Source: a virus (lineage: Duplodnaviria; Heunggongvirae; Uroviricota; Caudoviricetes). Taken from it: 37,527 nt of DNA. Below the pieces are notes generated by a model that had not been told where the DNA came from, searched no databases, and saw only the letters and a program-made list of their open reading frames with translations. A program made the translations under genes and the position numbers. The DNA lies in the IMG/VR virus record IMGVR_UViG_2737471866_000010, one strand, 5' to 3'. The stretch's first letter is position 1, and each line of letters opens with the position of its first letter. Shown here in pieces: positions 1 to 18,397 of this stretch.

Positions 1-294
1 ACCAAGGTTTTCGAGAGCCGTTGGTACCGTGCCGTCCGATTTGATATCACCAAACGGATTATTGCGGCTTAACAGCAGTGCGCGAAGTGCGGTAAGCAAC
101 TGGTCATGCCGCCCCTTCTCCAGGCTGGCACCGGATGCCTCCACAACGCTGCAAAGCTCCTCCTGCAACATGTCAAAGTAGTCATCATCCAGATCGGTGG
201 CAGGCGTACCAGTCTGGGGATTACCACGGGTAAAACCGTTCTTACCCGCGCCGAACTTATCCTTCTGCGCGGTTTTCGTGTCTATACGATGCAT
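1..294 (-). CDS. Tail fiber protein, N-terminal part (gene runs off the window start)
   Basis: ATG at 294..292 opens a frame with no stop down to position 1 (98 codons, [35 protein letters not shown]...); resembles conserved N-termini of enterobacterial phage tail fibers; sits directly after the Mu gp48-like gene as gene S does in Mu. Confidence 0.5.
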
Positions 295-297
295 GGA

Positions 298-882
298 TTA
301 CTCCGGATATTTAAAAATTACGTAGGTATGCGACGGGCAGAGTTTGTTAAGCACACACTCGACAACGGTGTCGCCCCAGATACGCAGTGCGGAATCACAG
401 GGATCGCCACATGTCATCCAGGTGGTGTTGGTGGCGGCTGGCATGTTGACCTGCCAGTAATACCGCCATTCCGGCGCATTCACCGCGTCAGTACAGGCCG
501 ATGAGCAGGTGAACGTGCTTTTGTCGTATCGCGTGATGGTGGCGTCTGGTCTGCCCAGGGCAGCAAGCTGTGCAAGGTAAAAATCCTCATTGATGCCGCC
601 CGCCAGGTTAACCTTCGCATCCAGTCGTTGCTGACGCTGGCGAAGGGTCTGTGTCCCTGCGGGAATACATTCATCCGGCAGGCCGCACAGACGCTCCCAG
701 CGATTTATCAGTTCGGTGGTGGTGCGCGGATCCAGCTCCCGCATCAGGGCATCCGCACGCTGATGAACGCGGGTTAATGACGGTGCCGCACCGGCAATCG
801 CCGGATCGCTGGCTGACCACGCCGGACCGGGGGGCAACAGTGCCGACAACAGACGGATGTAATCATCGTTTGTCACGTCCAT
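298..882 (-). CDS. Tail protein, Mu gp48-like (DUF2313 family)
   Basis: 194-aa ORF in the position and with the size expected after the baseplate J gene in Mu-type tails; family assignment from memory. Confidence 0.55.
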
Positions 883-1931
883 GAAATCGTCCCCAGTACC
901 GCCAGTTCATTTTTTGCAATGGAGATATTGTCTGCCGGTGCAAACAACTGATGGCTGTATTCCCCGTTCGCACCGGAAATCGCTTCACTGATACGTGACA
1001 CCTTCAGTTCTCCCTGCGGATAACCATCACGCAGCAGGAACGAACGCAACTCGGCGGTGATGGCAGCCCGTATTTCCGGTGTGTCCGGCGTCACGCGGAT
1101 ATGAAAATCCACCGTATGCGCCACCGGCCTGAACACATACAAATCAGAGCCTGCCACCGGGGCCAGTGGCTCAATGTGTTGTCTTGCCGCCGTTTCCGTT
1201 GATTCTTCCGGAATGGGATTAATCAGGTCACTGCCGGCAATCATCACACCGACAGTTCCCGTTCCCATCCAGTGACGGTATGTCCATGCGCGGGTAATGC
1301 CGGGCACTTCTTTAGCCCAGACGACATAGTCCCCGTCAGCCCCGCCCTGCGGCGTCCAGTAATACCGCTCAATGACGCGGGCGCGCCACGTTTCCAGATC
1401 TTCTGTATCAAATCCGCCTGTCAGGGTGTCAGTCACACCGGAAGACGGCAGACCATTCACCGGCGTGACCAGGATTAATGCCGTACCATCGTCAGCGTTA
1501 CCGACCGCGCCTGCAGTTGAGCAGGCGATCGGCACGCGCAGGACACCACCGGAGCTGGTTGCATCGGCAGTTGCCGTGTACTGAACCAAGTCATCGCGCT
1601 GAATAACACTCCCGGCAGTCACCTTCAGGCCATCGCTGACACCTTCCCAGCGCATATACCCGCTGGCAGCCGTGGCCCCCTTGCGCGGACACCGTTTCAT
1701 CGCAGCATGTCGCGCCAGCCAGGACTCATCGCACAGGTCAGGCAGCATGTTCATTGCCAGATAATCGATGTAACCGTAAACCGTATGCAGCGCCGCCGCA
1801 TACACCTTTGCCCGCACGTCTTCATCCATGCGCCGGAGCGTGTCGCTGACGTCCAGCCTGGCGAATAAATCGTTACGGAGCATACTGATATTTTCTGCCA
1901 GCGTCGGGCGCTGAAATTCACTGTCCGCCAT
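873..1931 (-). CDS. Baseplate J-like protein (Mu gp47-like)
   Basis: 352-aa ORF; size and synteny between gp46-like and gp48-like genes. Confidence 0.65.
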
Positions 1932-2346
1932 GCGTTATCGCACTCCACAGATCATCAAAAGAAATCATTACCGGTCCGTCACGACGCCAGAGAGTGATAC
2001 TGTTACCCAGCTCATTAATCCCGGTGCGGCGGATATCCAGATCAATACGGGACACCACGCCGTCATCAATCATCCATTGCAGGCATTCGCGGATATACCC
2101 CCTTACCGTCTGCACCAGCTGATTGGTCAGTTTGCTGCGCTGAAGCAGCCACAGTCGGGAGCCGTAACGGTCATTCTGTACCGCAGGCCAGGTATCCCCC
2201 CACCATCCCATCGGGACGTCGGCGTTGTCATCAGGCTCCGCCCGCCGCCAGGTAAACAGGGAAATCACCACGGCGCGGGTCAGCGGATCCAGTTGTGCGC
2301 TGGCGCAGGTGCGTTTACCGTTCACCGTCAGCCACAGTTCCATCAT
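1918..2346 (-). CDS. Baseplate protein, Mu gp46-like
   Basis: 142-aa ORF with overlapping stop/start with neighbours; synteny in Mu-type baseplate cluster. Confidence 0.55.
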   Translation of the reverse strand: MMELWLTVNGKRTCASAQLDPLTRAVVISLFTWRRAEPDDNADVPMGWWGDTWPAVQNDRYGSRLWLLQRSKLTNQLVQTVRGYIRECLQWMIDDGVVSRIDLDIRRTGINELGNSITLWRRDGPVMISFDDLWSAITHGGQ

Positions 2347-2891
2347 GCCTCCATCGCTTTATCAGGTTTGTCGGTGTTACTGCCCTGACCGTTCTCTCTG
2401 TGACGATGCCCGTTATAGGCAAGCCGCATCGCTGACATGGTGGTACCGCCGGAGTCGCACAGGTCTTTCACCTGTCCGGTCACTTCCAGGTCCATTTCAA
2501 AACGTGCTCTGGGCGCATTGAGAAACGTGATCGTTTTACCTGCACCGTCCACCACGATCCCCTCCCGGGTCAGCGTCACAGACTGCCCCTGATCGTCATA
2601 GACAGCCACCTCACCCGTCTGCAGCCCTTTCAGGCGGTAGCGCCGGTCCGACACCGTAACAACCACCGCATGAGAACGGTCGCCATCCGGAAACAACACC
2701 ACCGCTTCCGCACCGCTGTTTGCCCTTGCGGTAAAACCGTAGGGTTCAAGATGTTCAACCCCGGCTTTGGGTTCACCGGCAATCAGGGACACATCCACGG
2801 TCTGACATTTCGTGGCGGCACTGATGCTTTTCACCACTGCCCGCCCAATCAGGCCGAGGAGTTGTCGCTGCATGGCTTCAATCGTCCTCAT
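2343..2891 (-). CDS. Baseplate assembly/spike protein (Mu gp45 / gpV-like)
   Basis: 182-aa ORF; synteny and size. Confidence 0.55.
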   Translation of the reverse strand: MRTIEAMQRQLLGLIGRAVVKSISAATKCQTVDVSLIAGEPKAGVEHLEPYGFTARANSGAEAVVLFPDGDRSHAVVVTVSDRRYRLKGLQTGEVAVYDDQGQSVTLTREGIVVDGAGKTITFLNAPRARFEMDLEVTGQVKDLCDSGGTTMSAMRLAYNGHRHRENGQGSNTDKPDKAMEA

Positions 2892-3970
2892 CAGAACGGG
2901 TCCTCCTGTACTCTGGCTTTTTTCTTTTTCCGCGCGCCGGGGGCTTCGGGTTCAGGCAGATAAGCATCAGGTGGGCCGACACGGATTTCCGTCAGGGTGC
3001 CGTTCTGGTCCTGAGTAAACGTGACTTCCGAGACAAGCAGTTCGGTATTGTCGAAACCACAGACCGGATCGAAGACAATCACCCGCTGGTTGGGCTGCCA
3101 CAGCGTACCGTTACCCTGTCGCCAGCCCTGCACCACATAGGTGGTTTCATCCGTCCGCGCCGCCCGTTGTCGGGCTTCAAAGTCAGCACGCGCAATACAG
3201 CCTGCCCCCGTGGCCTGCCCTGTCTGCCTGATATACATCGGACGGTAACGGGCAATAAATGCGTCCTCTGTGCGGGCCCGCAGCGCGGTGGTGGTGGCCT
3301 CACCGAAATCATCGTCGTTTCCGGCACGCTGCCCCGCCACCTGGTAAACAGAAAACCGCTCCCGGATACTCTTCTCCGTATCGCAGGAAAGGATGTTTTC
3401 CCCGAGTACCAGCGCGGTATGTGCCCGCGTTGAGCCAATACCGCCAATCACCAGCCTGCCGTGCGGGTCGTCGTAAGCCAGTGCCTGCTGCTGACCGAGT
3501 ATTTTGTTGATCACCTCAATCACCGTTTCGCCGTGATCAGGCTGGACATCAGGAATAACACCCGACGGCGCACCGTTGTTCACCACCTCAATGCCGAAAG
3601 GCGCAGCAAGCGCCTGCGCAATCTGTACCAGCGATCGTCCGTTAAACTGTGTCGGTTCGGCTGCACAGTCAATCAGGTCAGCGGTCAGACTACGTCCGGC
3701 AATACCGGTGCTGACCGAACGGGCATCGTAACGAACGGGGGTCGCCTCCACCCAGCCGGTGATCACCAGCTCATCACCAATCAGCACTTCCACTTTTGAA
3801 CCATTTTTAATGCGCGGCTGAAGCGTGGTGATACCATCATCTCCCGGCCACTGGCGGGTGATCTCCACACTGAAATCCCGCGCCAGTCGTTCAACACCGG
3901 CACCGATGCGCACCGATGTCCAGCCATTCCACTCCCGGCCATTTACCCGTAGCGTGACATTGTCGTTCAT
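2891..3970 (-). CDS. Tail/baseplate hub protein (Mu gp44 / P2 gpD-like)
   Basis: 359-aa ORF following the DNA circulation gene, as in Mu. Confidence 0.55.
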   Translation of the reverse strand: MNDNVTLRVNGREWNGWTSVRIGAGVERLARDFSVEITRQWPGDDGITTLQPRIKNGSKVEVLIGDELVITGWVEATPVRYDARSVSTGIAGRSLTADLIDCAAEPTQFNGRSLVQIAQALAAPFGIEVVNNGAPSGVIPDVQPDHGETVIEVINKILGQQQALAYDDPHGRLVIGGIGSTRAHTALVLGENILSCDTEKSIRERFSVYQVAGQRAGNDDDFGEATTTALRARTEDAFIARYRPMYIRQTGQATGAGCIARADFEARQRAARTDETTYVVQGWRQGNGTLWQPNQRVIVFDPVCGFDNTELLVSEVTFTQDQNGTLTEIRVGPPDAYLPEPEAPGARKKKKARVQEDPF

Positions 3971-5295
3971 TGCACTGGCACCTTCAGAGGGATCACCGGC
4001 ACAAAGCCGGGATGCGTAATGGCATTACGCCGGATAATGTCCGCGTCACGCGCCGCGTTATCAAACCAGGTCGCCGCCAGCACCAGCGCGGGTAAAACCT
4101 CATCAGGTGTGCGCTGAATGATCCGTGCAGACTGTTCAAGGCGCGTGTTGATATCCGCATTCAGATCTGCTTTCACCCGGCGCAGCGCCAGAAACAGCGC
4201 ATCACTGGTTGTACGGGACAACTCCTTATCAATTGCCGTATTCAGTGTGTCGCGAATGTCGGTCAGTTCTTCCCACGTTGGCAGGTCAACCGTGTTTTTC
4301 ACCGCCGGTGCATTGTTCAGTGCCGGATGCGTGACGGAAGGCCAGCCGGAGCTCTGCGCGGGTGTTGTTGACTGCCCCACTGCGGCATTCTGCATCACCG
4401 CAGAAGTTGTTAGCGCAGGCAATCGGGTAACGGCATACGCCGCTTCGCTGATTGCAGTCGTACGAAGGGTGCTGGCAACCACGTTACGCTGCTGAGTCGC
4501 CGTGGCGGTGGTTTTACTGTCCGTTTTCCAGACGCCGCGCGGTTGCAGATCGCTGCCAAGGCTGACACCGGAAAGCGTTTTGATCATGGTGACCAGGTCG
4601 CTGGTGTTACCATAAAGGCGTTTCCCGGTACGCCACATTTTCTGCACCTGCTCAACGAAATTTTTGCCTGACGATGGCGGCGGCAGAAGTACCGAGATAT
4701 CCCCCTGCAACAGCCTGGCGGCATCCGATACGGCAGAATCCACCACTTTCATCGCATCAGAAACATACCCAAGCATTATGCTGGCATTACCGATAACGTC
4801 GTTCTGCACGAAATCCGCCACGCCATCGATACTGAAACCGCTGAAGCTGTCACTGATGCAGTCATCCAGTGCAGAACAGGATGACATCAGCGTCTGCGCC
4901 GTCGCCGCACCTGAAGTGGGGTAAGAGAGTTCTCCCGCTTCGACAAACTTCAGGTCAAAGCGGACAATACGCCCTTCACTTTTCGATGTGCTGACCCGAA
5001 CTTCACCGTCAACACAGACTTTCAGCTCACCATATGTCGGGTGGACAAGCGTGCCGGGACCGGGTTTATTCAGCGCTTCAATCAGGCGATCGCGCTGGTC
5101 AAAGCAGTCATCTCCTACCACATAAGCTGTGATGGACGGGCGGAAAGTGACTTTTCCCAGATCTTCGGTATAGGGCTTGTCGCGGTTCGGGTATTCATGT
5201 GTTTCCACACGGCGACCGGTTCCCGCACTTTCTTCTTCAACCTTAAACGGTACGCCGCGAAATGACGCGTCCTGAAGCCTGTCTTTCCACGTCAT
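3967..5295 (-). CDS. DNA circulation protein N-like (Mu gp43-like)
   Basis: 442-aa ORF immediately downstream of the tape measure region in a Mu-type tail module. Confidence 0.55.
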   Translation of the reverse strand: MTWKDRLQDASFRGVPFKVEEESAGTGRRVETHEYPNRDKPYTEDLGKVTFRPSITAYVVGDDCFDQRDRLIEALNKPGPGTLVHPTYGELKVCVDGEVRVSTSKSEGRIVRFDLKFVEAGELSYPTSGAATAQTLMSSCSALDDCISDSFSGFSIDGVADFVQNDVIGNASIMLGYVSDAMKVVDSAVSDAARLLQGDISVLLPPPSSGKNFVEQVQKMWRTGKRLYGNTSDLVTMIKTLSGVSLGSDLQPRGVWKTDSKTTATATQQRNVVASTLRTTAISEAAYAVTRLPALTTSAVMQNAAVGQSTTPAQSSGWPSVTHPALNNAPAVKNTVDLPTWEELTDIRDTLNTAIDKELSRTTSDALFLALRRVKADLNADINTRLEQSARIIQRTPDEVLPALVLAATWFDNAARDADIIRRNAITHPGFVPVIPLKVPVQ

Positions 5296-5314
5296 ATAAA
5301 CTCCGAATATAAAA

Positions 5315-5334
5315 AAACCCGCCGAAGCAGGTTT
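5315..5334. terminator. Imperfect hairpin flanked by an A-run and a T-run, candidate bidirectional intrinsic terminator
   Basis: aaaaaaacccgccgaagcaggtttt between the lipoprotein stop (5349) and the N-like start (5295). Confidence 0.35.
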
Positions 5335-5348
5335 TAATAAATTATCTA

Positions 5349-6026
5349 TTATCTAAAGTTACTTATTACTCGATACCTTATGCTTTGGTTACTCGCATCA
5401 AGTACTTCGAATTTAGCGCCTTTATAGCCAATTGTTTTAGACTCCGCGAGATCATACTCAACATCGTTGTTGAAGGCCGGGCGCGCTGTATTCGCTGAAA
5501 ATTCACGATATCCAATGTTGATTTTGTTTCCGACCCTTCCGTTGTAAAGCAGAGCTTGCTGGAAAGATGAGTCACCACTGATGTTCAGATTAACCTTTTC
5601 GATCGGCATGTTGGTTTCACAGGTGGTAGCGCCAAAAACTGTTATTACACATAAGGCATTATTTTTCTTTTCTACCATGATGCCCTGCCACATATCGGCA
5701 AGAGCTGCCTTTTCCACATTGGCTGAATCAGCACCGTTTGTGAGAAAGTAATAATCTGCCTTGTTATCCTCACCAACCTTTTTCAGCATCCCCGGAGTAA
5801 TCGTATAAGCCCAGGAAACTCTCGCGGGAGCATTAACCTTCAAACCTTCGAACTTCTGTGACTCACCCTGCTTAATCATCGAATCACCGACATAAGCTGT
5901 ATTAATGCTTCCTACAGGAGGCTCACTATAACTTTCTGTTTTTGGTAAATAATTATACTTTGGAGATGTACATCCCCCGAGTAAAAGAGCCATGCCGACA
6001 ACTGAATAAACTGTTAGAATTTTCAT
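5349..6026 (-). CDS. Lipoprotein moron (signal peptide with lipobox LLGGC); function unknown, candidate superinfection exclusion protein
   Basis: Internal ATG (M15 of ORF 5349..6068) gives MKILTVYSVVGMALLLGGC..., a classic lipoprotein signal; visibly AT-rich island between tape measure and downstream tail genes. Confidence 0.6.
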   Translation of the reverse strand: MKILTVYSVVGMALLLGGCTSPKYNYLPKTESYSEPPVGSINTAYVGDSMIKQGESQKFEGLKVNAPARVSWAYTITPGMLKKVGEDNKADYYFLTNGADSANVEKAALADMWQGIMVEKKNNALCVITVFGATTCETNMPIEKVNLNISGDSSFQQALLYNGRVGNKINIGYREFSANTARPAFNNDVEYDLAESKTIGYKGAKFEVLDASNQSIRYRVISNFR

Positions 6027-6107
6027 ATCCCTATTCCCATCATTAAATAATCGGACTAATCCTACCAAGAATCAGCAAAACGACAAAACCCGTACTTAAG
6101 CTGGCTA

Positions 6108-7889
6108 TTAGCCCCCCATACCAAACCGGGTGTAACCAACGTCGTGATTCACGTCGATACCACTGGAGCGGGTATCGGTCACCCGCATCCCGGGAGGCGC
6201 ATCCTTAAACGAGACCGTAATCTCGCCTTCAGCCTTCTTCGGCGCAGCCTGAACTATCTGATACGGATTGTATCCCTGAGCAGAAACGCCTGTACCGTAC
6301 GCCCCATAGCCACCGCCCCCCCACTGAGTCGCATTGGCTGCAACCACCGTGTCGCTGGCACCATCAGTAAACCATTCAATAATCGGCTTCAGCTTGTCCC
6401 ACATATCCTGAAACCACTTAACAACCGGCCCCCAGTTATTGATCACCATCCCCAGCGGCGACCAGGCAAAAACTTTCTTAAGGAGTTCCCAGCCAGCCTC
6501 AAAATAAGGACCAATGGTTTCCCAGAGTTTCTTAAAATAAGGTCCGACAACATCCCAGTTAGTGATAATTAATCCCGCAGCCAGGGCTATCGCCGTCGCA
6601 ATCATGCCAATCGGCGTCATCGACATGATCCTGCTGACAATACTGATGGCACTGCCCACGCCCATCAATCCCAGTTTCAGAATCGCAAGACCGGCAGCAA
6701 GCCCGACGACGCCGCGAATAACCCGGGGATTTTCATCCGCAAACTTCGTGAATTTCTCCCCCAACTCCCCCAGCCATTGCGTGATATTTTTGGCGTCACC
6801 AGAAAATGCGCCGCCAATAGCCGCAAGGCCGTTAGTTGCGGTCCCCGTCATTGCCTCCCACAGGTTGGACAGCGTACCAAGCTGGGCCTGAACACGTTTA
6901 TTCAGGCTGGCCTGTTTATTCATCTTCTGCTGGATCTGATCGTAGCCATCCTTTCCTTTATCGATTAGTGCATTGACCACCTGAAGGGTTTCGGCATCAT
7001 CACCAAATATTGCCTTAAGTACACCTGTTCGCTTAACGTCGGTCAGTTTTCGCAGCTTTGCCAGTTGCCTGAACATGTTATCAAGACCGCCAAAACTTCC
7101 TTTGCCGTCAGTAAAATCGAGCTGTACCCCGAGTTTCTGGCGGGCCATGACTTTATTGACGTCCCTGATTTTCTTAACGCTTAACCCGGACTGGATAACT
7201 TTTCGCAGGGCATTACCTGCCGACTCCCCGTTCATCCCCATCTGATCCATCATGACGCTGATGGGGGCAAGGCTCTGTGCAGCCTGAAGACCGTCCTTGT
7301 TCACCATCTTCAGAACAGAACTGGTTTTAGTGAAGAAGGACAACATGTTGGTATCGTCAACGCCCAGATAAAACGCCTTCTGGATAGTGTCGAACAGCCC
7401 CATCATGTCTTCTGACGCCGTTCCGGTAGCATCCTGCATCTTTGCAGCAAACTCAGCAGCCGCTTCCGGTGTTTTTTTCAGTTGTACCGCAAGATAAGCT
7501 GTCGCTTTACCCACACCACCCAGAATGTTTTCTGCCGGGATCCCCTGACGCACCAGCATCTGCATCATGTTCTGGAAATCAGCCGTTGTACCGGGTAGCT
7601 GGTTACCCAGGCCAATAGCCAGTTTATTGATGTCCTGAAAGCTCTTTCCGACCTCGCCGTTCGCATCCATCATGGCGACTTTCAGCCCGGTGGCGGCGTT
7701 TTCCTGATCGGCATAAGATTTCAGGGAAAGCGTCAGACCCGCTGCCAGTCCGCCACCAAGCGCCAGCCCACCCTGTGATGCTTCTTCCGCCTGGCGTTTA
7801 AATCCCCGGATTTTCTTTTGCATTTTCGACAGCGCGGGAGAAAGTCTGTCGACACCGGTGATCAACGCCTTAAGCTCAAATTCAGCCAT
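6108..7889 (-). CDS. Tail tape measure protein
   Basis: 593-aa ORF with Ala/Gly-rich helical stretches and a hydrophobic glycine-rich segment; follows overlapping chaperone ORFs. Confidence 0.75.
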   Translation of the reverse strand: MAEFELKALITGVDRLSPALSKMQKKIRGFKRQAEEASQGGLALGGGLAAGLTLSLKSYADQENAATGLKVAMMDANGEVGKSFQDINKLAIGLGNQLPGTTADFQNMMQMLVRQGIPAENILGGVGKATAYLAVQLKKTPEAAAEFAAKMQDATGTASEDMMGLFDTIQKAFYLGVDDTNMLSFFTKTSSVLKMVNKDGLQAAQSLAPISVMMDQMGMNGESAGNALRKVIQSGLSVKKIRDVNKVMARQKLGVQLDFTDGKGSFGGLDNMFRQLAKLRKLTDVKRTGVLKAIFGDDAETLQVVNALIDKGKDGYDQIQQKMNKQASLNKRVQAQLGTLSNLWEAMTGTATNGLAAIGGAFSGDAKNITQWLGELGEKFTKFADENPRVIRGVVGLAAGLAILKLGLMGVGSAISIVSRIMSMTPIGMIATAIALAAGLIITNWDVVGPYFKKLWETIGPYFEAGWELLKKVFAWSPLGMVINNWGPVVKWFQDMWDKLKPIIEWFTDGASDTVVAANATQWGGGGYGAYGTGVSAQGYNPYQIVQAAPKKAEGEITVSFKDAPPGMRVTDTRSSGIDVNHDVGYTRFGMGG

Positions 7890-8064
7890 GTGTGCGTTTC
7901 TCCTGCTCTATCCTGTTTGCCTGACTGACCAGCAAGGGAATTTCACTGATCGGCATATTCAGCAATTCGAAGGGATTAATGCGCCAGTAGCTGGCGCAGT
8001 CAAAGAAGCGATCAGTGAGGTATTCAGCCGTCAGGCCTGGAGGAAAAAACCAGCCACAAGCCAC
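7882..8064 (-). CDS. Candidate frameshift extension of the tail assembly chaperone
   Basis: 60-aa ORF in a different frame overlapping the 3' end of ORF 8031..8300 and the tape measure start. Confidence 0.3.
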   Translation of the reverse strand: MACGWFFPPGLTAEYLTDRFFDCASYWRINPFELLNMPISEIPLLVSQANRIEQEKRTHG

Positions 8065-8300
8065 GCCGCAGCATTCAGGTCTGCCGGAGACATCTGGTCG
8101 ACAGAGCTTTGCGGCACTTTCGCCAGCCGCACAATGTATTTCGACACCACATGCGCCAGAAGTCTGACGGACTCATCCTGATTCATCTGGTAGGGATACC
8201 CCAGCTCGCGGACATCCTTCCCGGTGGGTTCATCAAACTCCAGTACGGAGAGTGTCTCACCATGAGCGATAATCGGTTTCTTTAACTCAAGCTCTTTCAT
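8031..8300 (-). CDS. Tail assembly chaperone
   Basis: 89-aa ORF between the tail tube and tape measure genes. Confidence 0.5.
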   Translation of the reverse strand: MKELELKKPIIAHGETLSVLEFDEPTGKDVRELGYPYQMNQDESVRLLAHVVSKYIVRLAKVPQSSVDQMSPADLNAAAWLVAGFFLQA

Positions 8301-8656
8301 TACTGGTAATCCCCTTCTTCACCGTGGAACTCAAGATCAACCGTCCCTTCTTCGGCATTATGGTTCGCTTCTCCGTGCAGCCAGGCGGACGACAATACAT
8401 AGACCTGACCGTTCGCCAGCTCGGCAGTGATGGTCATCTCATCAGACGAGGTGATTTTGCTCACCGGAAAATTCTTCGGCACCTTGAAGGTCCCTTTGAC
8501 ATAAGGCGCACGGTGAGTTTCCTTGCGGTCCACTGAACCGTCCAGGCCGATGATGTCATCATTGACCGTCCTGTTCATGGGCACCTCAATGCCGCCGGTC
8601 AGCGATAGCTGCTGACCGTCAATTTTGAAATAACAGGTTCCCCCGATACGGGCCAT
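8300..8656 (-). CDS. Tail tube protein
   Basis: 118-aa ORF directly after the sheath gene, 1-nt overlap. Confidence 0.6.
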   Translation of the reverse strand: MARIGGTCYFKIDGQQLSLTGGIEVPMNRTVNDDIIGLDGSVDRKETHRAPYVKGTFKVPKNFPVSKITSSDEMTITAELANGQVYVLSSAWLHGEANHNAEEGTVDLEFHGEEGDYQ

Positions 8657-10152
8657 TATGCAGACTCCTCTGAATACTGAAGACGGAACTGGTTAACCAC
8701 GGCAAAAACACGCAACTGGTTAACATAGTCAGGCGGGAACAGCGTGTTCAGGCGGTTCGGATCGCTGGCATCACGCTCCACAACCAGGTACTGCTTAAAC
8801 AGTTCGTAGTTTTCCACGATCCCCGCACGCTCAAGCTGACGGTAGGTTGCCAGCAGTTCCCCTTTGATTACCGCCGGGGTGACAATCGCCTGACCGGGAC
8901 CAAAGCGGGTACCGTCGCTGGCAAGCTTGTGACGCCCGTACTTACTGGTAATGACGGATTTCAGTTTGCGCAGTACATACGCGCTGGTATGCAGCGTCTC
9001 GCTGTCGAGGTAGCTGTTATCCGCAACACCGTAAGCATTTTTCCTGTACGTGGTGACATCACGCTGAATGCGCAGCACCCCGCTTTCGACATACGCCGTT
9101 GCCACGCCATGAGACAGCAGGGTCTGCTGCTCGGTCATCGTGAACCGTTTCCCCTTCGGCGCAGGCAACATACCCACCAGCTCACCGGTCTGCGTGGGAC
9201 GTGCCGGATCGTTGCGGATAAACACCGCTGCGCGGGCGGTACGGCTTGCCGCCAGCTCGTCGGCAGGCGTCTGGGTCTCTTTTTCGTACCCCGCCAGGGT
9301 GATGTGCTGCTGGTTAAACTGGTCACCTGCGTTCACCAGTTCTGACAGTGTGCCGGTCTTTGCCGTATACACATGACCATACAGCTGACGCGCATAGCTC
9401 CAGCGACCGCTGGTATCGTTCATCTCGGTCACCAGCGTGTTAACGGAGGCCGTGTCGTTGAACGGCAGACCGATATAATCAAACGGCTCATCCGCCATTG
9501 CAGCCACCGCGCCGGTGAGAACCGGAGCGCCCGTTCCGGCGGTCCCCGTCGCCACGGCAATCTGTACGCCCGCTGGCAGTACTTCGCCCCCACCGAAGCC
9601 GTAGTAATTGAGGCTGACAGGAATTTCATTCCCGCAAAGCCCCTTATGACGCGCGGTCAGCGTGACAACACCAGCCGAAGATGAAGCTGTAAACGGCAGA
9701 GTCGGAACGGCATTGATGGCATCTTTGATACTGCTGGCAATCGTCGTGACGTTATCGCCGTTGGTCACCGGAGCCTGCACGCGGGTACGTCCCACATAGA
9801 CATTCACCGTGCCGCTTTCGGTTGCTTCCCCGGTCACCGTCAGCGTAACCGTTGCCGCCGCGCCTGTGGCTTCCGGAACGGCAATCACATACAGCTCACC
9901 AAACGGGTCGGTCTGGCGATAAGCCTCGACCATACGCGCCAGCTGACTTCCCGCACCACAAATCTGGCGTGCATAGTCTGCCGACGGCATCAGCACCAGA
10001 CTGTTGGCAACAATCTCTGCACCGTTATTGGCATGACCAATCAGCAGCGATGCTCCGCTGTCCTGTGCAGTATTCGCCGCCTGGTTATCCATTTCCGCAT
10101 AAAACAGCGGAACCAGCGTATTCGACGGAATGGTGTTAAAGCTTATCGTCAT
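8656..10152 (-). CDS. Contractile tail sheath protein
   Basis: 498-aa ORF; size and position typical of Mu/P2-type sheath. Confidence 0.8.
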   Translation of the reverse strand: MTISFNTIPSNTLVPLFYAEMDNQAANTAQDSGASLLIGHANNGAEIVANSLVLMPSADYARQICGAGSQLARMVEAYRQTDPFGELYVIAVPEATGAAATVTLTVTGEATESGTVNVYVGRTRVQAPVTNGDNVTTIASSIKDAINAVPTLPFTASSSAGVVTLTARHKGLCGNEIPVSLNYYGFGGGEVLPAGVQIAVATGTAGTGAPVLTGAVAAMADEPFDYIGLPFNDTASVNTLVTEMNDTSGRWSYARQLYGHVYTAKTGTLSELVNAGDQFNQQHITLAGYEKETQTPADELAASRTARAAVFIRNDPARPTQTGELVGMLPAPKGKRFTMTEQQTLLSHGVATAYVESGVLRIQRDVTTYRKNAYGVADNSYLDSETLHTSAYVLRKLKSVITSKYGRHKLASDGTRFGPGQAIVTPAVIKGELLATYRQLERAGIVENYELFKQYLVVERDASDPNRLNTLFPPDYVNQLRVFAVVNQFRLQYSEESA

Positions 10153-10306
10153 CGGTGTTCACCTTTTTATTCACGCGCCGGATATCACCCGCTGCTTCAC
10201 GGCGCAGCCAGTAGTTGTTCTCGTCAACATTTCGCCCTTCGGTGGGCAAAAGGTCACCGCGGGCAGGGTCAGGCACTGACCGCCCTTTAACAGGTTTCAC
10301 AAACAT
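10136..10306 (-). CDS. Small protein (56 aa), possible Mu gp38-like (DUF2635)
   Basis: ATG at 10306..10304 to TAA at 10138..10136, hand-translated MFVKPVKGRSVPDPARGDLLPTEGRNVDENNYWLRREAAGDIRRVNKKVNTDDDKL; below the 60-aa track cutoff; fills the gap between gp37-like and sheath genes. Confidence 0.4.
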   Translation of the reverse strand: MFVKPVKGRSVPDPARGDLLPTEGRNVDENNYWLRREAAGDIRRVNKKVNTDDDKL

Positions 10307-10314
10307 GAAGATTC

Positions 10315-10875
10315 TCAGGAAGGAAGGGTTATTTCGGTGTGATGTTCGATATCGCCGTCAGGCCCGTTACCGGGATCGAGATAATCAACATCAATCGCCA
10401 GCGTTCGCAGTTCATCCAGACTGTTCAGGTCATCCTGCTGGCGGGTATCGTCTTCGGTCAGCTCGCTGATGACCGAAAAATCGAACTGATAAATCAGCTC
10501 ATGACGATTCAGATCCAGTAGCGTGCCGCCGTCATAGGTAATCGGGTTACCGCACGCTTCCGGGTTCCAGCCCAGCAGGGCCTTAAAGAGCATCTGCCGG
10601 ACATCGTCCACCACATCATACGAGGTAAACTGACCGCGCTCATCACGCCCGTTACTCAGTATGACAACCACGGAGAAACTCTCTTTCAGCTCCTGCCAGT
10701 AGTCGGTCTGGCTTTTGTTTTCTCCCGGAGAATCATCACCCGGTACAACATATGCCGCCGGGAGTTTCAGCTTTCCGACCTCCGGCAGATTTTTGAACTG
10801 GGCCGCGCCTGCAACCCGGTTTTCAAAATACGGACAGCGGGCACGCAGTGCAGCAATAACAGGTGTCAGTTTCAT
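10315..10875 (-). CDS. Mu gp37-like protein (DUF1834)
   Basis: 186-aa ORF; synteny upstream of sheath. Confidence 0.5.
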   Translation of the reverse strand: MKLTPVIAALRARCPYFENRVAGAAQFKNLPEVGKLKLPAAYVVPGDDSPGENKSQTDYWQELKESFSVVVILSNGRDERGQFTSYDVVDDVRQMLFKALLGWNPEACGNPITYDGGTLLDLNRHELIYQFDFSVISELTEDDTRQQDDLNSLDELRTLAIDVDYLDPGNGPDGDIEHHTEITLPS

Positions 10876-11378
10876 CTGTGTCGTCGCTCCGGCTTCAGTG
10901 ATTTACGCAATTCCCGCGCCAGAAAATAGCGTGTCCAGCTGCGGTTCTTTTCAAGAGTTTCCACCATGAAGTTATTACGTGGAGCCAGTCGCCAGCCGCT
11001 GCCACCGGATGCACCACGATGATGACTACGACGACGTTTTGCTCCTCCCCGGACACCAAAAAACAGAAACGCCGGATAGAAGTCACCAGAGATCATCCGG
11101 TTCCCCTTCCCGTTGCGCTGGTTAGGGGCAATGCGTGTCATAAAACCGGCTCGCTTTTTACTGGCTCTCGGCACCATATAACCAATCGAACGAGCCAGGC
11201 GTCCGGTCTGATAACCGGGGTTTTCACCCGGTGCCGATCGCGCACGGCGCATCACCAGCCGACGGGCATCACGCATATGACGCTGCCCAATCGTGACAAA
11301 CGCCCGCCGGACACGGGCGCGGTTAAAGCGCATCTCGGCGGGCTGCTGAACATCAACGTGAAAAAAGGGAGTCGCCAT
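10872..11378 (-). CDS. Virion morphogenesis / tail completion protein (HK97 gp10-like)
   Basis: 168-aa basic ORF at the head-tail junction. Confidence 0.4.
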   Translation of the reverse strand: MATPFFHVDVQQPAEMRFNRARVRRAFVTIGQRHMRDARRLVMRRARSAPGENPGYQTGRLARSIGYMVPRASKKRAGFMTRIAPNQRNGKGNRMISGDFYPAFLFFGVRGGAKRRRSHHRGASGGSGWRLAPRNNFMVETLEKNRSWTRYFLARELRKSLKPERRHR

Positions 11379-11763
11379 TGCTGCCTCCGTGACTCTGCCT
11401 ACATTCGCCCAGCTCCGTACACTCCAGCAGCAGAAAGCGCCGCGCCCCGTTCAGATCACGCTGACGTTTCACCCGGTACACACTGTCACCGCAGACCACC
11501 TCATAATCAGCGGTGATCCCCCGGCGGTAACGAATGGTGATGTAATGGGTGATGGCGTCCCCGGTCTGCGCGGTTTCCTGCCAGGTGGTGGCACTGGTCT
11601 GGACAACCTTCGCCCATGCCCGGAACGCAACCGGGTATTGAGGCTCCACGCCAAAGTTATCCGCGGGCATATCCACCCGCTGGCGGATCAGGACGCGTTT
11701 ATTCAGTTCGCCGGGGTCCGGCAGAATGTAGGTTGCGCTGGTCTGCGCCTGACGAATTTTCAT
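11353..11763 (-). CDS. Head-tail adaptor / head closure protein
   Basis: 136-aa ORF; position between connector and tail completion genes. Confidence 0.45.
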   Translation of the reverse strand: MKIRQAQTSATYILPDPGELNKRVLIRQRVDMPADNFGVEPQYPVAFRAWAKVVQTSATTWQETAQTGDAITHYITIRYRRGITADYEVVCGDSVYRVKRQRDLNGARRFLLLECTELGECRQSHGGSNGDSLFSR

Positions 11764-12083
11764 TGCGGAAAGTACCTGTACGGGCCGACAAGCCAGCCAA
11801 AACTCTGCGGCATGTCGAGTTTCTCCACTTCCGTAACCGACGAGCGGTTTTCGTAAAAATGGCTGATAAGCATCAGCATCCCCAGACGAATATCATCCGG
11901 CAGGTGCAGCCCGTCCGGATCGCTGTCCGGAATGGTTTCATCCGGTGCATAGAGCTTCCGGTTCAGATACGTTTCCGTCCGCTTTTGTGCCGCACAGGCC
12001 AGCAGTTGCAGATGGCGGTCATCAGCATCGAAATCCTCATCCAGCCGGAGTTGGGCTTTAATCTCTTCCATTGTCAGAAGCAT
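11760..12083 (-). CDS. Head-tail connector protein (gp6-like)
   Basis: 107-aa acidic ORF downstream of the capsid gene. Confidence 0.45.
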   Translation of the reverse strand: MLLTMEEIKAQLRLDEDFDADDRHLQLLACAAQKRTETYLNRKLYAPDETIPDSDPDGLHLPDDIRLGMLMLISHFYENRSSVTEVEKLDMPQSFGWLVGPYRYFPQ

Positions 12084-12085
12084 AC

Positions 12086-12286
12086 TCAGCCCTCTTTACT
12101 GGTCGTGGCTTTTTTCTCTTTTGCCGCTTTACTGCTTTTTGCACTGATTCCGCGCTCTGCTAACCCGGCCTGAAGTGCAATCTCCTGCACCCGGGCAGGA
12201 AGCGCCCCGTCGTCATACTCACCGGCCCGAATGACCTCAACACGCATACCGTCCGGTGACCATTTCAGATCTTGTTTCAGGATCAT
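12086..12286 (-). CDS. Small hypothetical protein in the head module
   Basis: 66-aa ORF with ATG start, tightly packed between capsid and connector genes. Confidence 0.35.
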   Translation of the reverse strand: MILKQDLKWSPDGMRVEVIRAGEYDDGALPARVQEIALQAGLAERGISAKSSKAAKEKKATTSKEG

Positions 12287-12335
12287 GATTCTTCACCCGT
12301 CAGAACAGGGGGCGCGGTTCCGCGCCCCTGAGTGA

Positions 12336-13541
12336 TTACGCCGCTGCAATCTTCAGCAGTTTGATGGCCTGCGAATCGACCAGCATCCCGCCGGTGCGCT
12401 TGGTGGTATAAAAACCGACAAAAGGTTTATTGGTGTACGGGTCACGCAGAATGCGGGTGCCGATACGGTCAACGATGGTGTAACCCCGTTTGAAGTTACC
12501 AAATGCAATGGCTTTCGCATCAGCAGCGATATCCGGCATCTGTTCGTTTTCAGCGATACCGTAACCCGCCAGAGAGGACGGCTGCCCCAGTTCCAGCCCC
12601 GGACGCCACAGATAGTTACCCTCGGTGTCTTTCAGCAGACGGATGGCAAACAGGCTGTTGTTGTTCATCATGAACTTCGCGCCAGTGCGGTGTGCCTTAC
12701 GCAGCGTGTAAATCAGTTTGATAATGGCGTCTGCGGTCACCGCGGTCGCTTCGCCGGATACAATATGCTGAAGTTTGCCGAACGCCCGGACCTTGTCGGT
12801 TTCATCGGTGGATTCATACGCCAGGAACCCTTTCGGCTTCTTGGTGCCATCGCCTGAGGTAAAGGCAATTTCTTCCTGTTCGGCAAATTCGGTTGCCAGC
12901 TCGCTGTTGATCCAGGCCTCCACGTTGAAGAAGGCATCGTCCAGCATTTTCTGGGTAGCCTGCGGGTTGCCGTAGATTTCCCCCATGAGAGGTTCAATCA
13001 GCTCCAGTCTGGAGGTGGCAGTCTGGGATCGCGTATCCGTTTCCCCCACCCATCCGGAAGCCGTACCGCCCAGATTCACCAGTTTTTTGTAGTCGGAACC
13101 GCCAACGGTGATCACCGTGGCTTCCTGACGCATCACAACTTCATCTTTCAGCAGGTTAAGAATGTTGCGATCCAGTTCTTCCGGCACGGCGTAGCCACCG
13201 TCTTCATCGGTACCCACCTGCAATGCCTTACGCTCCAGATCGCGCAGACCGTCTTCACGGCCTTTACGCAGGAAGCCCACAAACGCCTCTTTATGCTCGG
13301 TGGCCAGTTTATTTTGCGCTCCACCTGCCGGACGTCTCAGCTCAAGCAGCTCTTTTTCAAGGTCGCTTTTGAGATTTTCCAGCTCGCTGAGTTTCCCGTT
13401 CAGGGTTTCCACCTGCCCGGCAAGCTTGCCTTTTTCCTGCTCAATCGCATCCACGCGCTTGTCGTTCTTTGCTTTGAAGTCGTCAAACTTCTGCTGCAGC
13501 TCCTGCGCGACCTGTTCGACATCTTTAATATCAACCGCCAT
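12336..13541 (-). CDS. Major capsid protein (HK97 fold)
   Basis: 401-aa ORF with an N-terminal coiled-coil delta-like domain followed by a capsid-like body; follows the prohead protease. Confidence 0.85.
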   Translation of the reverse strand: MAVDIKDVEQVAQELQQKFDDFKAKNDKRVDAIEQEKGKLAGQVETLNGKLSELENLKSDLEKELLELRRPAGGAQNKLATEHKEAFVGFLRKGREDGLRDLERKALQVGTDEDGGYAVPEELDRNILNLLKDEVVMRQEATVITVGGSDYKKLVNLGGTASGWVGETDTRSQTATSRLELIEPLMGEIYGNPQATQKMLDDAFFNVEAWINSELATEFAEQEEIAFTSGDGTKKPKGFLAYESTDETDKVRAFGKLQHIVSGEATAVTADAIIKLIYTLRKAHRTGAKFMMNNNSLFAIRLLKDTEGNYLWRPGLELGQPSSLAGYGIAENEQMPDIAADAKAIAFGNFKRGYTIVDRIGTRILRDPYTNKPFVGFYTTKRTGGMLVDSQAIKLLKIAAA

Positions 13542-13555
13542 CGTATTTCTCCTGA

Positions 13556-14206
13556 TTAGAAGTTCAGATTTTTCAGTGCATTCAGTGCAGAGCCCACATC
13601 CTCAGCGTCGCGCAGGGACAGTGCGCCATAGCCCCCGGCCATGAATGCTTTGGCCTGGGTACGGGAGAGTCCGACATCACGCAGGACTCTTTCGATTTTT
13701 TTCTGTTCGGGGATTTCCCCGCGGGCCAGTGCGTTCTTGACGTCGCTGATCCGCGCCTCGTCGTTAGACGGGAACGTCACCAGGCTGACTTCCCAGAGGT
13801 CGATTTCTTTCAGCAGAAAGGCTTCTTTGCTCCGGTCGTATTCCCAGTCTTTCAGGACGTACCCAATAGAAAGGCCGGTTAACGAACCGGCCTTCATGTG
13901 TGCATGTGCGCGTTTTGCGAGGGGATCATCATCAATAAGCAACCGTCCCCTGACGTAAAGCCCGACATCGTCTTCCTTCATTTCGGTGTAAACACCGATG
14001 GGTTCATCCATGCGGTGCTGCCAGAGCAGCGCAGGTAACGCTTTTCTGTCACTCCACGCCCGCAGGGAAGCAGCAAATGCCCCGGACATCACCACATCAT
14101 CGTGGCTGTCCTTTACACCAAAGACGGAGCCATACCCTTCAAACTCACCGGAGTCACTGACAGATTTCAGACTCAGCGGTACATCAAGACGTTGTTTCGT
14201 CTGCAT
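13556..14206 (-). CDS. Prohead protease (HK97 family)
   Basis: Start at internal ATG (M13 of ORF 13556..14242) preceded by GAAGGA; position between portal and capsid. Confidence 0.75.
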   Translation of the reverse strand: MQTKQRLDVPLSLKSVSDSGEFEGYGSVFGVKDSHDDVVMSGAFAASLRAWSDRKALPALLWQHRMDEPIGVYTEMKEDDVGLYVRGRLLIDDDPLAKRAHAHMKAGSLTGLSIGYVLKDWEYDRSKEAFLLKEIDLWEVSLVTFPSNDEARISDVKNALARGEIPEQKKIERVLRDVGLSRTQAKAFMAGGYGALSLRDAEDVGSALNALKNLNF

Positions 14207-15425: not shown

Positions 15426-15607
15426 TATTTACCTCCGCCGACAGACGACTGTGTACGGTCGAGATATCGCGCCACCAGCCACGACCAGAACAGACACAAC
15501 GCCCCGGCAACAACAAACCCCGCCGGGGGATAAATCAGCCAGGCACCATACGCCAGCAAAAGCGCCCCCAGCACGCCCACCAGAGGCGCGAGAATCAGCA
15601 TGATCAT
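15425..15607 (-). CDS. Small membrane protein (two predicted TM helices)
   Basis: 60-aa hydrophobic ORF with ATG and GAGGT Shine-Dalgarno, between terminase and portal; stop overlaps portal start. Confidence 0.4.
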
Positions 15608-15618
15608 AATTACCTCAG

Positions 15619-17852: not shown

Positions 17853-17968
17853 TCCTGGTTAAATTTCATTTTTCGCGGGTATAAAAAAACGATGGGGCGG
17901 GCAGTCCGGAAGACGTCAGGTCACAGGGATTTGACCCGCCCCTCCCCTCTGGCAGTAGGAACTGGTTC

Positions 17969-18319: not shown

Positions 18320-18331
18320 AAAAACACCAGT

Positions 18332-18356
18332 AAAAAGCCTCGCTAATGCGAGGCTA
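18332..18356 (-). terminator. Intrinsic terminator downstream of the membrane moron
   Basis: Perfect 8-bp stem agcctcgc/gcgaggct with taat loop, followed on the minus strand by a T-run. Confidence 0.5.
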
Positions 18357-18397
18357 ATTCATAGTAACAATTTACTCTGACAGTACCACGACTGTAG

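Follow-up and report, generated by a model that had tools for sequence, protein, structure and literature searches.

Morons of lambdoid and HK97-type phages, such as lambda lom and bor, are cassettes of a promoter, a gene and a terminator; Lom is a beta-barrel outer-membrane protein and Bor a lipoprotein of ~97 residues. Cor (phi80, N15, HK022, mEp167) and Llp of T5 are phage outer-membrane lipoproteins of ~60–80 residues that act at the envelope on one receptor, FhuA, which is inactivated. In T5, llp adjoins the receptor-binding gene, and cor adjoins tail-fibre genes. Ltp of the Streptococcus thermophilus phage TP-J34 is reportedly a superinfection-exclusion lipoprotein with the tape-measure protein as its target; it is helical and built from tandem HTH-like repeats. 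In mEp phages, small lipoprotein genes that bring about phage exclusion lie within the structural clusters, and the Lpp lipoproteins of mEpimmI coliphages are of several short types whose sequence follows the receptor used, OmpA or LamB (PMC11893012). A lipoprotein is also included among 21 new single-gene defences of E. coli (Vassallo et al., PMC9519451).

The lipoprotein gene described here was analyzed in a window of 37,527 nucleotides (IMG/VR record IMGVR_UViG_2737471866_000010), the whole stretch of DNA under study, in which all positions are counted from the first letter. The window belongs to an E. coli prophage that is lambdoid and SfV/SfII-like and has a Mu-type tail; it is not Mu itself. 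Features of the locus are listed in Table 1. The best explanation as a whole, to which a probability of roughly 40% was assigned, is that of a moron cassette whose product would be an exported lipoprotein that protects the cell at the envelope.

Table 1. Features of the lipoprotein locus and its surroundings in the window.
Feature	Positions	Strand	Basis
Lipoprotein CDS, PHROG 1353 member	5349–6026	minus	ORF list, RefSeq CDS, profile match, dN/dS
Predicted signal peptide (residues 1–18) and lipid-modified Cys19 (codon 5970–5972), lipobox L-G-G-C	5970–6026	minus	direct reading, alignments
Shine-Dalgarno-like AGGGA, 1 nt spacer to ATG	6028–6032	minus	direct reading
Promoter-like element: -35 TTGTCG (6081–6086), 16-bp spacer ending in TG (6066–6067), -10 TAGGAT (6059–6064)	6059–6086	minus	conservation
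Tail tape-measure gene, upstream neighbor	6108–7889	minus	phrog_28, phrog_17727 and others; RefSeq annotation
Mu gp43-like DNA-circulation/baseplate-hub gene, downstream neighbor	3967–5295	minus	phrog_184 (E=7e-146), phrog_17109; RefSeq annotation
Intrinsic-terminator-like hairpin and T-run	5311–5335	minus	9-bp stem, 4 GC pairs
Whole variable segment versus cargo-free relatives, including the 3'-terminal ~50 codons of the tape-measure gene	5328–6257		blastn break-points

The lipoprotein and its family

The ORF opens with an ATG at 6024–6026 and encodes 225 amino acids, with the stop codon inside its coordinates. An identical 678-nt CDS is labelled 'hypothetical protein' in RefSeq. Two E. coli alleles differed at 24 synonymous and 11 non-synonymous positions (dN/dS = 0.115); on the evidence of this ratio and of >1,000 homologues, the ORF is a real gene and not a chance ORF. 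The stretch ATAGGGATATG around the Shine-Dalgarno sequence was kept in several lineages.

The signal sequence and lipobox read MKILTVYSVVGMALLLGG, followed directly by C. The N-terminus MKILTVYSVVGMALLLGGC was read directly against a PROSITE PS51257-type rule (positive N-terminus, uncharged hydrophobic core, lipobox [LVI..][ASTVIG][GAS]C, Cys at 15–35) and conformed to it, with K2, an uncharged hydrophobic core and L-G-G ahead of Cys19. The lipobox Cys stood at the equivalent position in 113 of 120 homologues, the exceptions being mostly truncated or having looser boxes, and C19 was invariant in alignments of 47 and 60 sequences. A lipoprotein of ~225 residues had been predicted by the sequence-only reading, and the lipoprotein signal that this prediction needs was found. 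Thr-Ser occupies +2 and +3 after Cys19, and Asp was present at +2 in 0 of the 120 homologues checked; by the +2 rule, Thr at +2 would imply sorting of the lipoprotein to the outer membrane.

A functional, constrained protein is well supported by the dN/dS ratio, by 37 columns that were invariant over 60 sequences (C19, C126 and C136 among them) and by an AlphaFold (AF2) model with a pLDDT of 92. In this confident model the predicted fold is all-beta and appears to be without a recognizable relative in the PDB or BFVD, against which Foldseek returned nothing at E<=1e-3. The mature domain of ~205 residues probably contains one disulfide, C126–C136.

No family had been recognized when the sequence was first read. 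Profile search yielded a full-length match to PHROG 1353 (E=8.5e-97; residues 1–225 on profile positions 1–227 of 230), the only PHROG matched, and the lipoprotein is a full member of this family, to which no function is assigned. Other members are Fels-2 STM2726 and proteins of RE2010, Klebsiella P2-like prophages, Acinetobacter Vieuvirus and Moraxella Mcat28. STM2726 was encountered in the literature in an operon list only, and a literature search found no paper on PHROG 1353, the RefSeq accessions or EcHS_A0921. No family was matched by the lipoprotein at E<=1 in a Pfam scan, and 0 families at E<=1 in PADLOC-DB 2.0; the defence lipoprotein reported by Vassallo et al. is presumably unrelated to the PHROG 1353 protein, given the lack of a PADLOC match. 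The best NCBIfam matches (E=0.008 and 0.15) lay far below cut-offs, and sequence searches of the PDB, with the single sequence and with a profile, gave chance-level matches only (E about 0.7).

At 50% identity the family resolves into about 3,065 clusters, nearly all of them single-domain proteins of ~225 aa. Domain fusions were considered and rejected, long profile-search matches proving to be mis-called starts. One of these long matches (P0162) is a capsid::lipoprotein chimera that carries exactly this E. coli sequence, probably as an artefact of assembly or of a deletion.

Cargo at a junction of tail genes

The gene had been placed in an AT-rich island between the tape-measure and DNA-circulation genes. 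Both points were borne out: GC was 0.41–0.45 over 5250–6150 versus 0.53–0.60 in the flanks, and the two neighbors were identified by profile matches and RefSeq annotation (Table 1). The lipoprotein gene itself had a GC of 0.419 and a GC3 of 0.40, against 0.53–0.56 and 0.59–0.60 for the surrounding phage genes (0.526 and 0.586 for the tape-measure gene; 0.557 and 0.596 for the DNA-circulation gene).

The junction was without cargo in SfV, SfII, SfI and the relative L004, and the lipoprotein gene was missing from most related E. coli prophages. Homology to L004, L005, L007 and L019 (blastn) broke at 5328 and 6257; the tape-measure C-termini were divergent yet homologous. Three different cargo genes occupied the same slot in other relatives: one codes for a 164-aa protein with a Sec signal, another, on the opposite strand, for a tRNA_anti-like OB-fold protein anchored in the membrane, and the third for a bPH_1 protein. 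The junction flanks were present in 1,094 of 5,426 complete E. coli genomes; across the 5,426, the lipoprotein was found in 55, the 164-aa protein in 85, the bPH_1 protein in 28 and the OB-fold allele in 7. The lipoprotein gene is an addition that separates two genes adjoining each other in relatives, and its composition is unlike that of the phage genes around it, two marks of morons in the Hendrix/Juhala sense. Sequence comparison supports the view that it is optional cargo, a moron in the tail cluster, as had been proposed at the outset; its conserved lipobox and a promoter-like element that moves with the gene were counted on the same side.

A virion structural or tail-assembly protein is suggested by the position between two tail genes and by nothing else. 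It is opposed by the export signal and lipobox, by the absence of the gene from SfV, SfII, SfI and most related prophages, by the unrelated cargo that fills the slot elsewhere and by homologues outside phages, and was given almost no credence. Because the protein is predicted to be exported and functional phages exist without the gene, the product is very probably a dispensable, exported accessory lipoprotein, neither a virion nor an assembly component.

The promoter-like element lies ~32 nt upstream of the ATG. The pattern TTG / 16 bp / TGnTAGGAT was kept in 10 of 12 upstream regions, drawn from at least four unrelated phage backbones, while the sequence farther upstream was unrelated. The element matches 8 of 12 consensus positions plus the TG and was missed by a generic promoter scan because only these 8 of 12 match. 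Its conservation points to a putative promoter of the gene's own.

A candidate terminator hairpin downstream of the gene had also been noted. A hairpin with a T-run is indeed present (-12.5 kcal/mol, z = -2.4), 13 nt past the stop codon and directly ahead of the Shine-Dalgarno sequence and start of the DNA-circulation gene, but it is not specific to the lipoprotein gene. The empty junction of L004 has an equivalent hairpin (-18.7 kcal/mol, z = -3.5), an equivalent one in SfII is annotated as a putative terminator, and the sequences downstream of the lipoprotein gene vary between phage contexts. Given the presence of the hairpin at a cargo-free junction, the idea that it is the moron's terminator was not favored; the hairpin probably belongs to the junction and not to the cassette.

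Distribution and candidate functions

Among 185,579 GTDB species genomes (one genome per species), 137 loci were confirmed, a lower bound since two peptide patterns were used. At 40–50% identity the family extended across Proteobacteria, Desulfuromonadota, Nitrospirota, Planctomycetota, Verrucomicrobiota and Omnitrophota. Homologues were found in an ICE, on genomic islands and at ordinary chromosomal sites as well as in P2-likes and in phages of the myo and sipho types; the phages included SfV-like myophages, TMP_2 and TMP_3 siphophages, the P2-like Fels-2, and Acinetobacter and Moraxella phages.

This distribution bears on the proposal of the sequence-only reading that the protein blocks a receptor. 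A blocker of the Cor/Llp type would bind the phage's own outer-membrane receptor, stopping both superinfection and the loss of progeny on debris. The gene lies inside a tail module and encodes a lipoprotein of the outer-membrane type, which would suit such a role, as would its place within the late operon, from which it would also be made in lytic growth. The genes llp and cor are parallels, as are the mEp Lpp genes, which exclude their own receptor group (PMC11893012). Yet the family spans phages with unlike tails and hosts, an ICE, islands, chromosomal sites and many phyla, and such a spread fits poorly with the blocking of a single, variable receptor of the outer membrane. A narrow and fast-evolving protein would be expected, yet dN/dS is 0.115, and the protein is three times the size of Cor or Llp and unrelated to them in sequence and fold; nor did it resemble other known exclusion lipoproteins in either respect. 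The proposal was left unsupported, the distribution over phyla and phage types arguing against it without refuting it, and receptor blocking is considered quite improbable.

A second alternative is a host-fitness envelope protein of the lysogenic-conversion kind, unrelated to phages, in which a binding, stress-tolerance or adhesion/immune-evasion factor is merely carried. Outside phages the neighbors were mostly ordinary housekeeping genes, and many such members bore no mobile-element or defence signature. Clustering of neighbors over 78 GTDB loci revealed no conserved partner gene, the family is widespread in free-living environmental bacteria, and a ligand-binding site is suggested by the large number of Tyr, Arg, Asp, Asn and Glu residues that are invariant. 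The patchy occurrence (55 of 5,426 E. coli genomes; at least 137 loci in 185,579 species genomes) argues against this alternative, as does repeated capture by phages, an ICE and integrase-flanked islands, more to be expected of conflict genes than of genes for physiology; roles of the serum-resistance type would be unsuited to environmental hosts. On balance it was judged rather unlikely.

Several mobile loci placed the gene in the company of defence or integrase genes. In an ICE cargo region the homologue adjoined SduA/Shedu, and on a Geobacter island it lay beside an integrase and a PRTase-CE/RVT pair. In Fels-2 it adjoined an AIPR abortive-infection-type protein in the gene A-to-Q hotspot, which is home to old, tin and many defence systems (PMC9519451). 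A screen of 150 neighbors gave few, single matches to defence or candidate-defence models, and enrichment of the family in defence islands is weak.

The Fels-2 homologue follows an SOS-type DinI/Tum gene and is in a predicted operon with it; the operon that contains this gene responded to mutagen (PMC2225428), a hint that the gene is expressed upon induction and not in the stable lysogen. An alternative in which the protein helps the lytic cycle late or at induction, for example by modulating the envelope ahead of lysis or by protecting progeny, and is not expressed in the lysogen, would agree with this response. It would agree too with the late-operon orientation of the gene, which is co-oriented with the late tail operon with no terminator found between it and the tape-measure gene, and with the siphophages, in which the homologue is likewise inside the tail operon. 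Closely related functional phages do without the gene, however, and both the promoter-like element conserved with it and its many non-phage loci speak against it; a helper of this kind is considered very improbable.

A tape-measure gene was found at most two genes away in 11 of 19 dereplicated IMG/VR lineages, and the linked genes were of three unrelated types (TMP_3, TMP_2 and Mu/SfV-type). In these phages the tape-measure flanks are general hotspots for cargo, so adjacency may mean permissive sites rather than function. In Acinetobacter phages the neighboring tape-measure protein bears an SLT transglycosylase domain, and in one lineage (L130) an Ivy lysozyme-inhibitor gene (PF08816, E=6e-24) lies between the lipoprotein and tape-measure genes. 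Both observations would fit a periplasmic inhibitor of wall hydrolases or other envelope-attacking enzymes, like Ivy, MliC and PliG, that neutralizes injected effectors, lysozyme or tail lysins; conservation across phyla would also be explained if the target were as conserved as peptidoglycan hydrolases are. The protein has no similarity in sequence or fold to Ivy, MliC, PliC or PliG, though, and the adjacency evidence is anecdotal, so that little probability was attached to an inhibitor.

The preferred reading, envelope-level protection by a moron, is as follows. A mobile cassette consisting of a sigma-70-type promoter of its own and one gene would have been inserted into the hotspot between the tape-measure and baseplate-hub genes. 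After Sec export, its product would receive a lipid at Cys19 and be cut by signal peptidase II, and the Lol pathway would carry it to the outer membrane, where the compact all-beta domain of ~205 residues would face either the periplasm or the cell surface. Lysogens would express it from the promoter of the cassette, and during lytic growth read-through from the Q-antiterminated late operon may add to this. The product would act on a feature that is conserved either in diderm bacteria or in incoming tailed phages, with tail-tip/tape-measure passage, or tail-associated wall hydrolases, in the periplasm as candidates; the plugging of one specific receptor is probably not involved. As a function, envelope-level protection of the lysogen by a generic protection or exclusion factor is a tentative assignment. 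In its favor were counted the defence genes beside some homologues, the recurrent tape-measure linkage, and the precedents of the mEp exclusion lipoproteins and of the lipoprotein among the single-gene E. coli defences. Bolder still is the idea of a phylum-spanning family of single-gene, outer-membrane-anchored barriers against the conserved periplasmic genome-delivery step of tailed phages, in which tape-measure/tail-tip passage or channel formation, or a tail-borne wall hydrolase, would be blocked. Such barriers would explain both conservation across diderm phyla and repeated capture next to three tape-measure types; we regard them as unlikely.

Envelope-acting prophage cargo decides which phages are able to infect a lysogen, and is relevant to phage therapy and to prophage-driven strain differences. 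With about 3,000 clusters at 50% identity the family is a large one; it is strongly conserved across phyla and is carried on phages, an ICE and islands, with neither annotation nor a recognizable fold. A single gene with a putative promoter of its own is easy to clone and test. Were it anti-phage, thousands of 'hypothetical lipoproteins' would be annotated at once, and a receptor-independent exclusion mechanism in diderm bacteria might be added; the barrier idea, if true, would add a new fold and, for Gram-negative bacteria, a novel way of excluding superinfection. With no anti-phage effect, it would be one more uncharacterized moron, an ordinary finding.

Comparison with described systems

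The locus resembles lambdoid and HK97-type morons in being an extra gene of atypical GC with its own promoter-like element, a downstream hairpin and a predicted envelope product. It differs from their cassette organization in that the hairpin pre-exists at the empty junction, and the promoter and ORF alone appear to travel. The product is unrelated to Lom and Bor. Pfam models for Lambda_Bor and TraT exist, and neither was matched in the Pfam scan at E<=1, which sets the protein apart from the serum-resistance and surface-exclusion lipoproteins Bor/Iss and TraT.

Like Cor and Llp it is a phage lipoprotein whose gene lies within or next to tail and receptor-binding genes, and it is expected to act at the envelope. 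They are short and serve one receptor, whereas the present protein has a mature length of ~205 residues, a predicted all-beta fold and relatives in many phyla. Homology to them was not found, PHROG 1353 being the sole PHROG match, with no Pfam family and no PDB fold. The mEpimmI Lpp proteins are likewise lipobox proteins encoded in the structural cluster of temperate coliphages, and exclusion was experimentally shown for them; no homology to the present family was seen via PHROG or Pfam, and they are set apart by their published description (PMC11893012).

Ltp differs in its Gram-positive host, its helical structure and its place in a lysogeny module, the present protein being predicted as all-beta and having no homology to it. 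The two are alike in that Ltp is a prophage lipoprotein acting after adsorption, and the conceptual link that it makes between an exclusion lipoprotein and the tape measure would fit the recurrent gene linkage found here.

Lipoprotein gene and cargo slot

The ~225-aa lipoprotein predicted by the sequence-only reading was recovered as a 225-codon ORF whose N-terminus (MKILTVYSVVGMALLLGGC) carries a complete bacterial lipoprotein signal. The lipobox Cys was invariant in family alignments of 47 and 60 sequences, a lipobox was found in 113/120 homologues, and the +2 residue was never Asp. The identical CDS is annotated as "hypothetical protein" in RefSeq (E. coli genomes matching this stretch at 100%). 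Between the two alleles found in E. coli (~94.8% nucleotide identity), 24 differences were synonymous and 11 non-synonymous (dN/dS 0.115), which marks this as a genuine gene kept by purifying selection. The AT-rich island noted earlier between the tape-measure and DNA-circulation genes was confirmed (GC 0.42 and GC3 0.40, against 0.53–0.56 and 0.59–0.60 in the flanking tail genes), and both flanks were identified.

Features of the window and, where counted, their occurrence in 5,426 complete E. coli genomes
Feature	Window position	Strand	E. coli genomes	Remark
DNA-circulation/baseplate-hub gene, Mu gp43-like	3967-5295			flank of lipoprotein gene
Hairpin with T-run	5311-5335
Lipoprotein ORF, 225 codons	5349-6026	-	55	ATG at 6024-6026, AGGGA upstream
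Promoter-like element (putative)	6059-6086
Tape-measure gene	6108-7889			flank of lipoprotein gene
Junction flanks			1,094
164-aa Sec-signal protein			85	same slot
bPH_1 protein			28
Membrane-anchored tRNA_anti-like OB-fold protein (this allele)			7	opposite strand
237-aa ORF	18398-19111	-
Holin	20061-20387	-
Opposite-strand gene pair	20678-22880	+
Antiterminator Q	~22905-23252	-

The late region of the window matched Shigella phages SfV, SfII and SfI and related E. coli prophages at 97–98% identity; these combine a lambdoid genome with a head of HK97 type and a contractile tail of Mu type. In SfV, SfII and SfI a short spacer alone parts the tape-measure gene from the DNA-circulation gene; the hairpin inside it was annotated in SfII by its authors as a putative rho-independent terminator. 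Of 40 records taken at even intervals, about half showed no cargo at the junction. This slot is a cargo hotspot with the lipoprotein gene as one optional occupant, and a virion or assembly role for a protein encoded between two tail genes was therefore rejected as effectively excluded. Similarity to cargo-free relatives stopped at 5328 and restarted at 6257, so that the variable segment takes in the last ~50 tape-measure codons. These codons (6108–6257) formed a divergent mosaic that switched along with cargo state, the tape-measure C-termini reading ...GYTRFGMGG, ...GYTRFGR or ...RIGRTGMGG.

One copy of the lipoprotein-bearing junction was located at 94267–96067 of NZ_CP104632.1 (100,861 bp, labelled plasmid). 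Junction matches on plasmid-annotated records numbered 13 in all and could represent phage-plasmids or assembly artefacts. The window itself was mosaic (1–18318 versus 18319–37527), with an SfV-like late region (98.4% to the NZ_CP067245 prophage), a CPS-53/KpLE1-like lysis/early region (yfdN-yfdT; best match NZ_CP182331) and, at its right end, an integrase adjoining tRNA-Thr and proA. Between antiterminator Q and the holin, the classical lambdoid moron position, an opposite-strand pair was found: one product is a nucleoid-associated protein like NA37/YejK (PF04245, E=8e-69), the other a 395-aa protein with no match in Pfam or PADLOC. The two genes may make up an uncharacterised module for cargo or defence. 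The 237-aa ORF, between an HNH endonuclease and an Rz-like lysis gene, likewise had no match in Pfam or PADLOC. The NZ_CP067245 prophage carries a different gene (DUF6236) there, which marks this site as another variable slot.

Promoter-like element and predicted junction terminator

Upstream regions were compared across unrelated backbones (SfV-like myovirus, Pseudocitrobacter and Citrobacter siphoviruses, Klebsiella siphoviruses and others). Similarity between backbones began only ~60 nt 5' of the ATG, and TTGnnn, a 16-bp spacer ending in TG, TAGGAT and a short leader with a ribosome-binding site followed in this order in 10/12 sequences. This geometry is that of a putative extended -10 sigma-70 promoter, a reading adopted because the element is kept while its surroundings change. 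A generic consensus promoter scan did not pick it up because only 8/12 positions match.

The terminator hairpin proposed downstream of the gene is present, with a T-run, but belongs to the junction and not to the cassette: cargo-free junctions have their own hairpin (-18.7 kcal/mol, z = -3.5 in L004), and the sequence 3' of the lipoprotein gene differs from one phage context to another. This leaves the putative promoter plus the ORF as the mobile unit. A GC-rich hairpin with a T-run was observed at every junction state, empty included (window 5296–5348; compared loci L004, L005, L007, L008 and L019), directly 5' of CGGAGTTTATATG, where the DNA-circulation gene has its SD and start, with stem sequences that varied by state. 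This predicted intra-operon terminator is conserved in the late tail operon and is presumably read through under Q antitermination. No terminator was found between the tape-measure and lipoprotein genes by terminator scan and folding, so transcription of the late operon under Q antitermination would be expected to run on through the lipoprotein gene. That its product is a helper made during lytic growth was judged very improbable.

On two IMG/VR contigs (L140, L148) with lipoproteins similar to those of the Acinetobacter phages, terminator hairpins bracket each cargo gene. A repeated motif, AAATTAGTATCTTGT...TATAA, lies 5' of the cargo gene and recurs before the next gene too; it has the appearance of a promoter or regulatory element repeated from one cargo gene to the next.

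Protein family, distribution and tape-measure linkage

Over its whole length the protein matched PHROG 1353 ("unknown function"; E=8.5e-97), with no match in Pfam, NCBIfam, PADLOC or PDB sequences. A word-indexed search returned 1,068 homologues, and a profile search of 1.84 billion cluster representatives returned 3,065 at E<=1e-3 and 1,903 at E<=1e-10, almost wholly single-domain proteins of ~225 aa. Domain fusions were rejected, the few long matches being mis-called starts plus one capsid::lipoprotein chimera. The chimera (P0162, 446 aa, representative library) joins the N-terminal part of an HK97-type major capsid protein (PF05065) to residues 76–225 of exactly this E. coli lipoprotein; misassembly, or a deletion during prophage decay, is the probable explanation. 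Among 60 sequences 37 columns were invariant, including C126 and C136, a probable disulfide pair on adjacent strands; family alignments also contained a near-fixed C-terminal block (GNKINIGYREFSxNxARPAFNNDVEYDL). AlphaFold2 gave a confident all-beta model (pLDDT 92, pTM 0.77), to which Foldseek returned no match in PDB or BFVD at E<=1e-3.

Homologues in phage records were found in Acinetobacter Vieuvirus and Moraxella Mcat28 (~46% identity) and in Fels-2, RE2010 and Klebsiella P2-likes (28%). In Fels-2 (L002 4455–7643) the homologue STM2726 lies between a DinI/TumB-like gene and the AIPR-domain protein STM2723.1 (PF10592, E=9e-43) in the gene A-to-Q hotspot, described as a defence locus by Vassallo et al. 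(PMC9519451). The predicted operon STM2726–STM2728 is among operons responding to the mutagen MX (PMC2225428). In GTDB, at one genome per species, at least 137 loci were confirmed (40–50% identity) in Gamma-, Beta- and Alphaproteobacteria, Desulfuromonadota, Nitrospirota, Planctomycetota, Verrucomicrobiota, Omnitrophota and Gemmatimonadota. Clustering of neighbours over 78 GTDB loci revealed no conserved neighbour gene; the surroundings were a mixture of housekeeping and mobile-element genes, with scattered defence-model matches only. Contexts included a Geobacter island that is flanked by an integrase and holds a PRTase-CE/RVT pair, the cargo region of an ICE, where the homologue adjoins Shedu SduA, and a Photobacterium copy adjoining TelA, PLD and an AAA protein. 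An envelope fitness factor unrelated to phages is a serious alternative, if an unlikely one.

On IMG/VR contigs the gene lay <=2 genes from a very large ORF in 11/19 dereplicated lineages; 7 of the 9 such ORFs tested were tape-measure proteins by Pfam (TMP_3, TMP_2, or PhageMin_Tail below cut-off), and the third type, that of SfV, was recognised by PHROG. A naive binomial test against 8% gave P ~4e-8, with lineages that are not independent and flanks that are general cargo hotspots. Genes between the homologue and the tape-measure gene were envelope cargo (Sec-signal proteins, Zn-ribbon membrane proteins, once an Ivy lysozyme inhibitor). The Ivy-family gene (L130:8727–9170, -; PF08816, E=6e-24, CKPHNC loop) sits on an IMG/VR prophage contig beside a lambda-type tape-measure gene.

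Proposed function and comparison with known systems

The lipoprotein is well supported as an exported, lipid-anchored, dispensable accessory protein on a mobile cassette of the gene and its putative promoter. By established lipoprotein biology it would be processed by Lgt/Lsp/Lnt; Thr at +2 predicts Lol sorting to the outer membrane, and the probable disulfide would form in the periplasm. Patchiness within species, conservation across phyla and repeated capture by mobile elements suggest an accessory gene of conflict type with a target that is conserved in its turn. This pattern favours a generic envelope-level protection or exclusion role (probability about 0.35), possibly directed at tail-borne wall hydrolases or at the tail tip/tape-measure complex as it crosses the periplasm. 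Inhibition of a hydrolase overlaps with envelope protection and is improbable as a separate reading. The moron is ordinary in kind; noteworthy are the very large, phylum-spanning, unannotated lipoprotein family without a recognisable fold, the conserved putative promoter travelling with the gene, and the recurrent siting beside tape-measure genes.

The cassette would work as other morons do, and is at least formally like the lipoprotein exclusion genes cor, llp and mEp Lpp (PMC11893012), which likewise lie within tail or structural clusters. The protein is not a member of the Cor, Llp or mEp Lpp families, since size, sequence and fold tests all fail. The sequence-only reading had noted a larger size than that of Cor or Llp and recognised no family; PHROG 1353 is the protein's only one. 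The interpretation as a lipoprotein moron held, whereas a Cor/Llp-like plug of a single receptor now appears quite doubtful and ranks below the generic envelope-level role. Ltp of TP-J34 is a helical lipoprotein, unrelated to the present all-beta protein; it is mentioned solely because its target, reportedly the tape-measure protein, parallels the tape-measure gene linkage of the present family.
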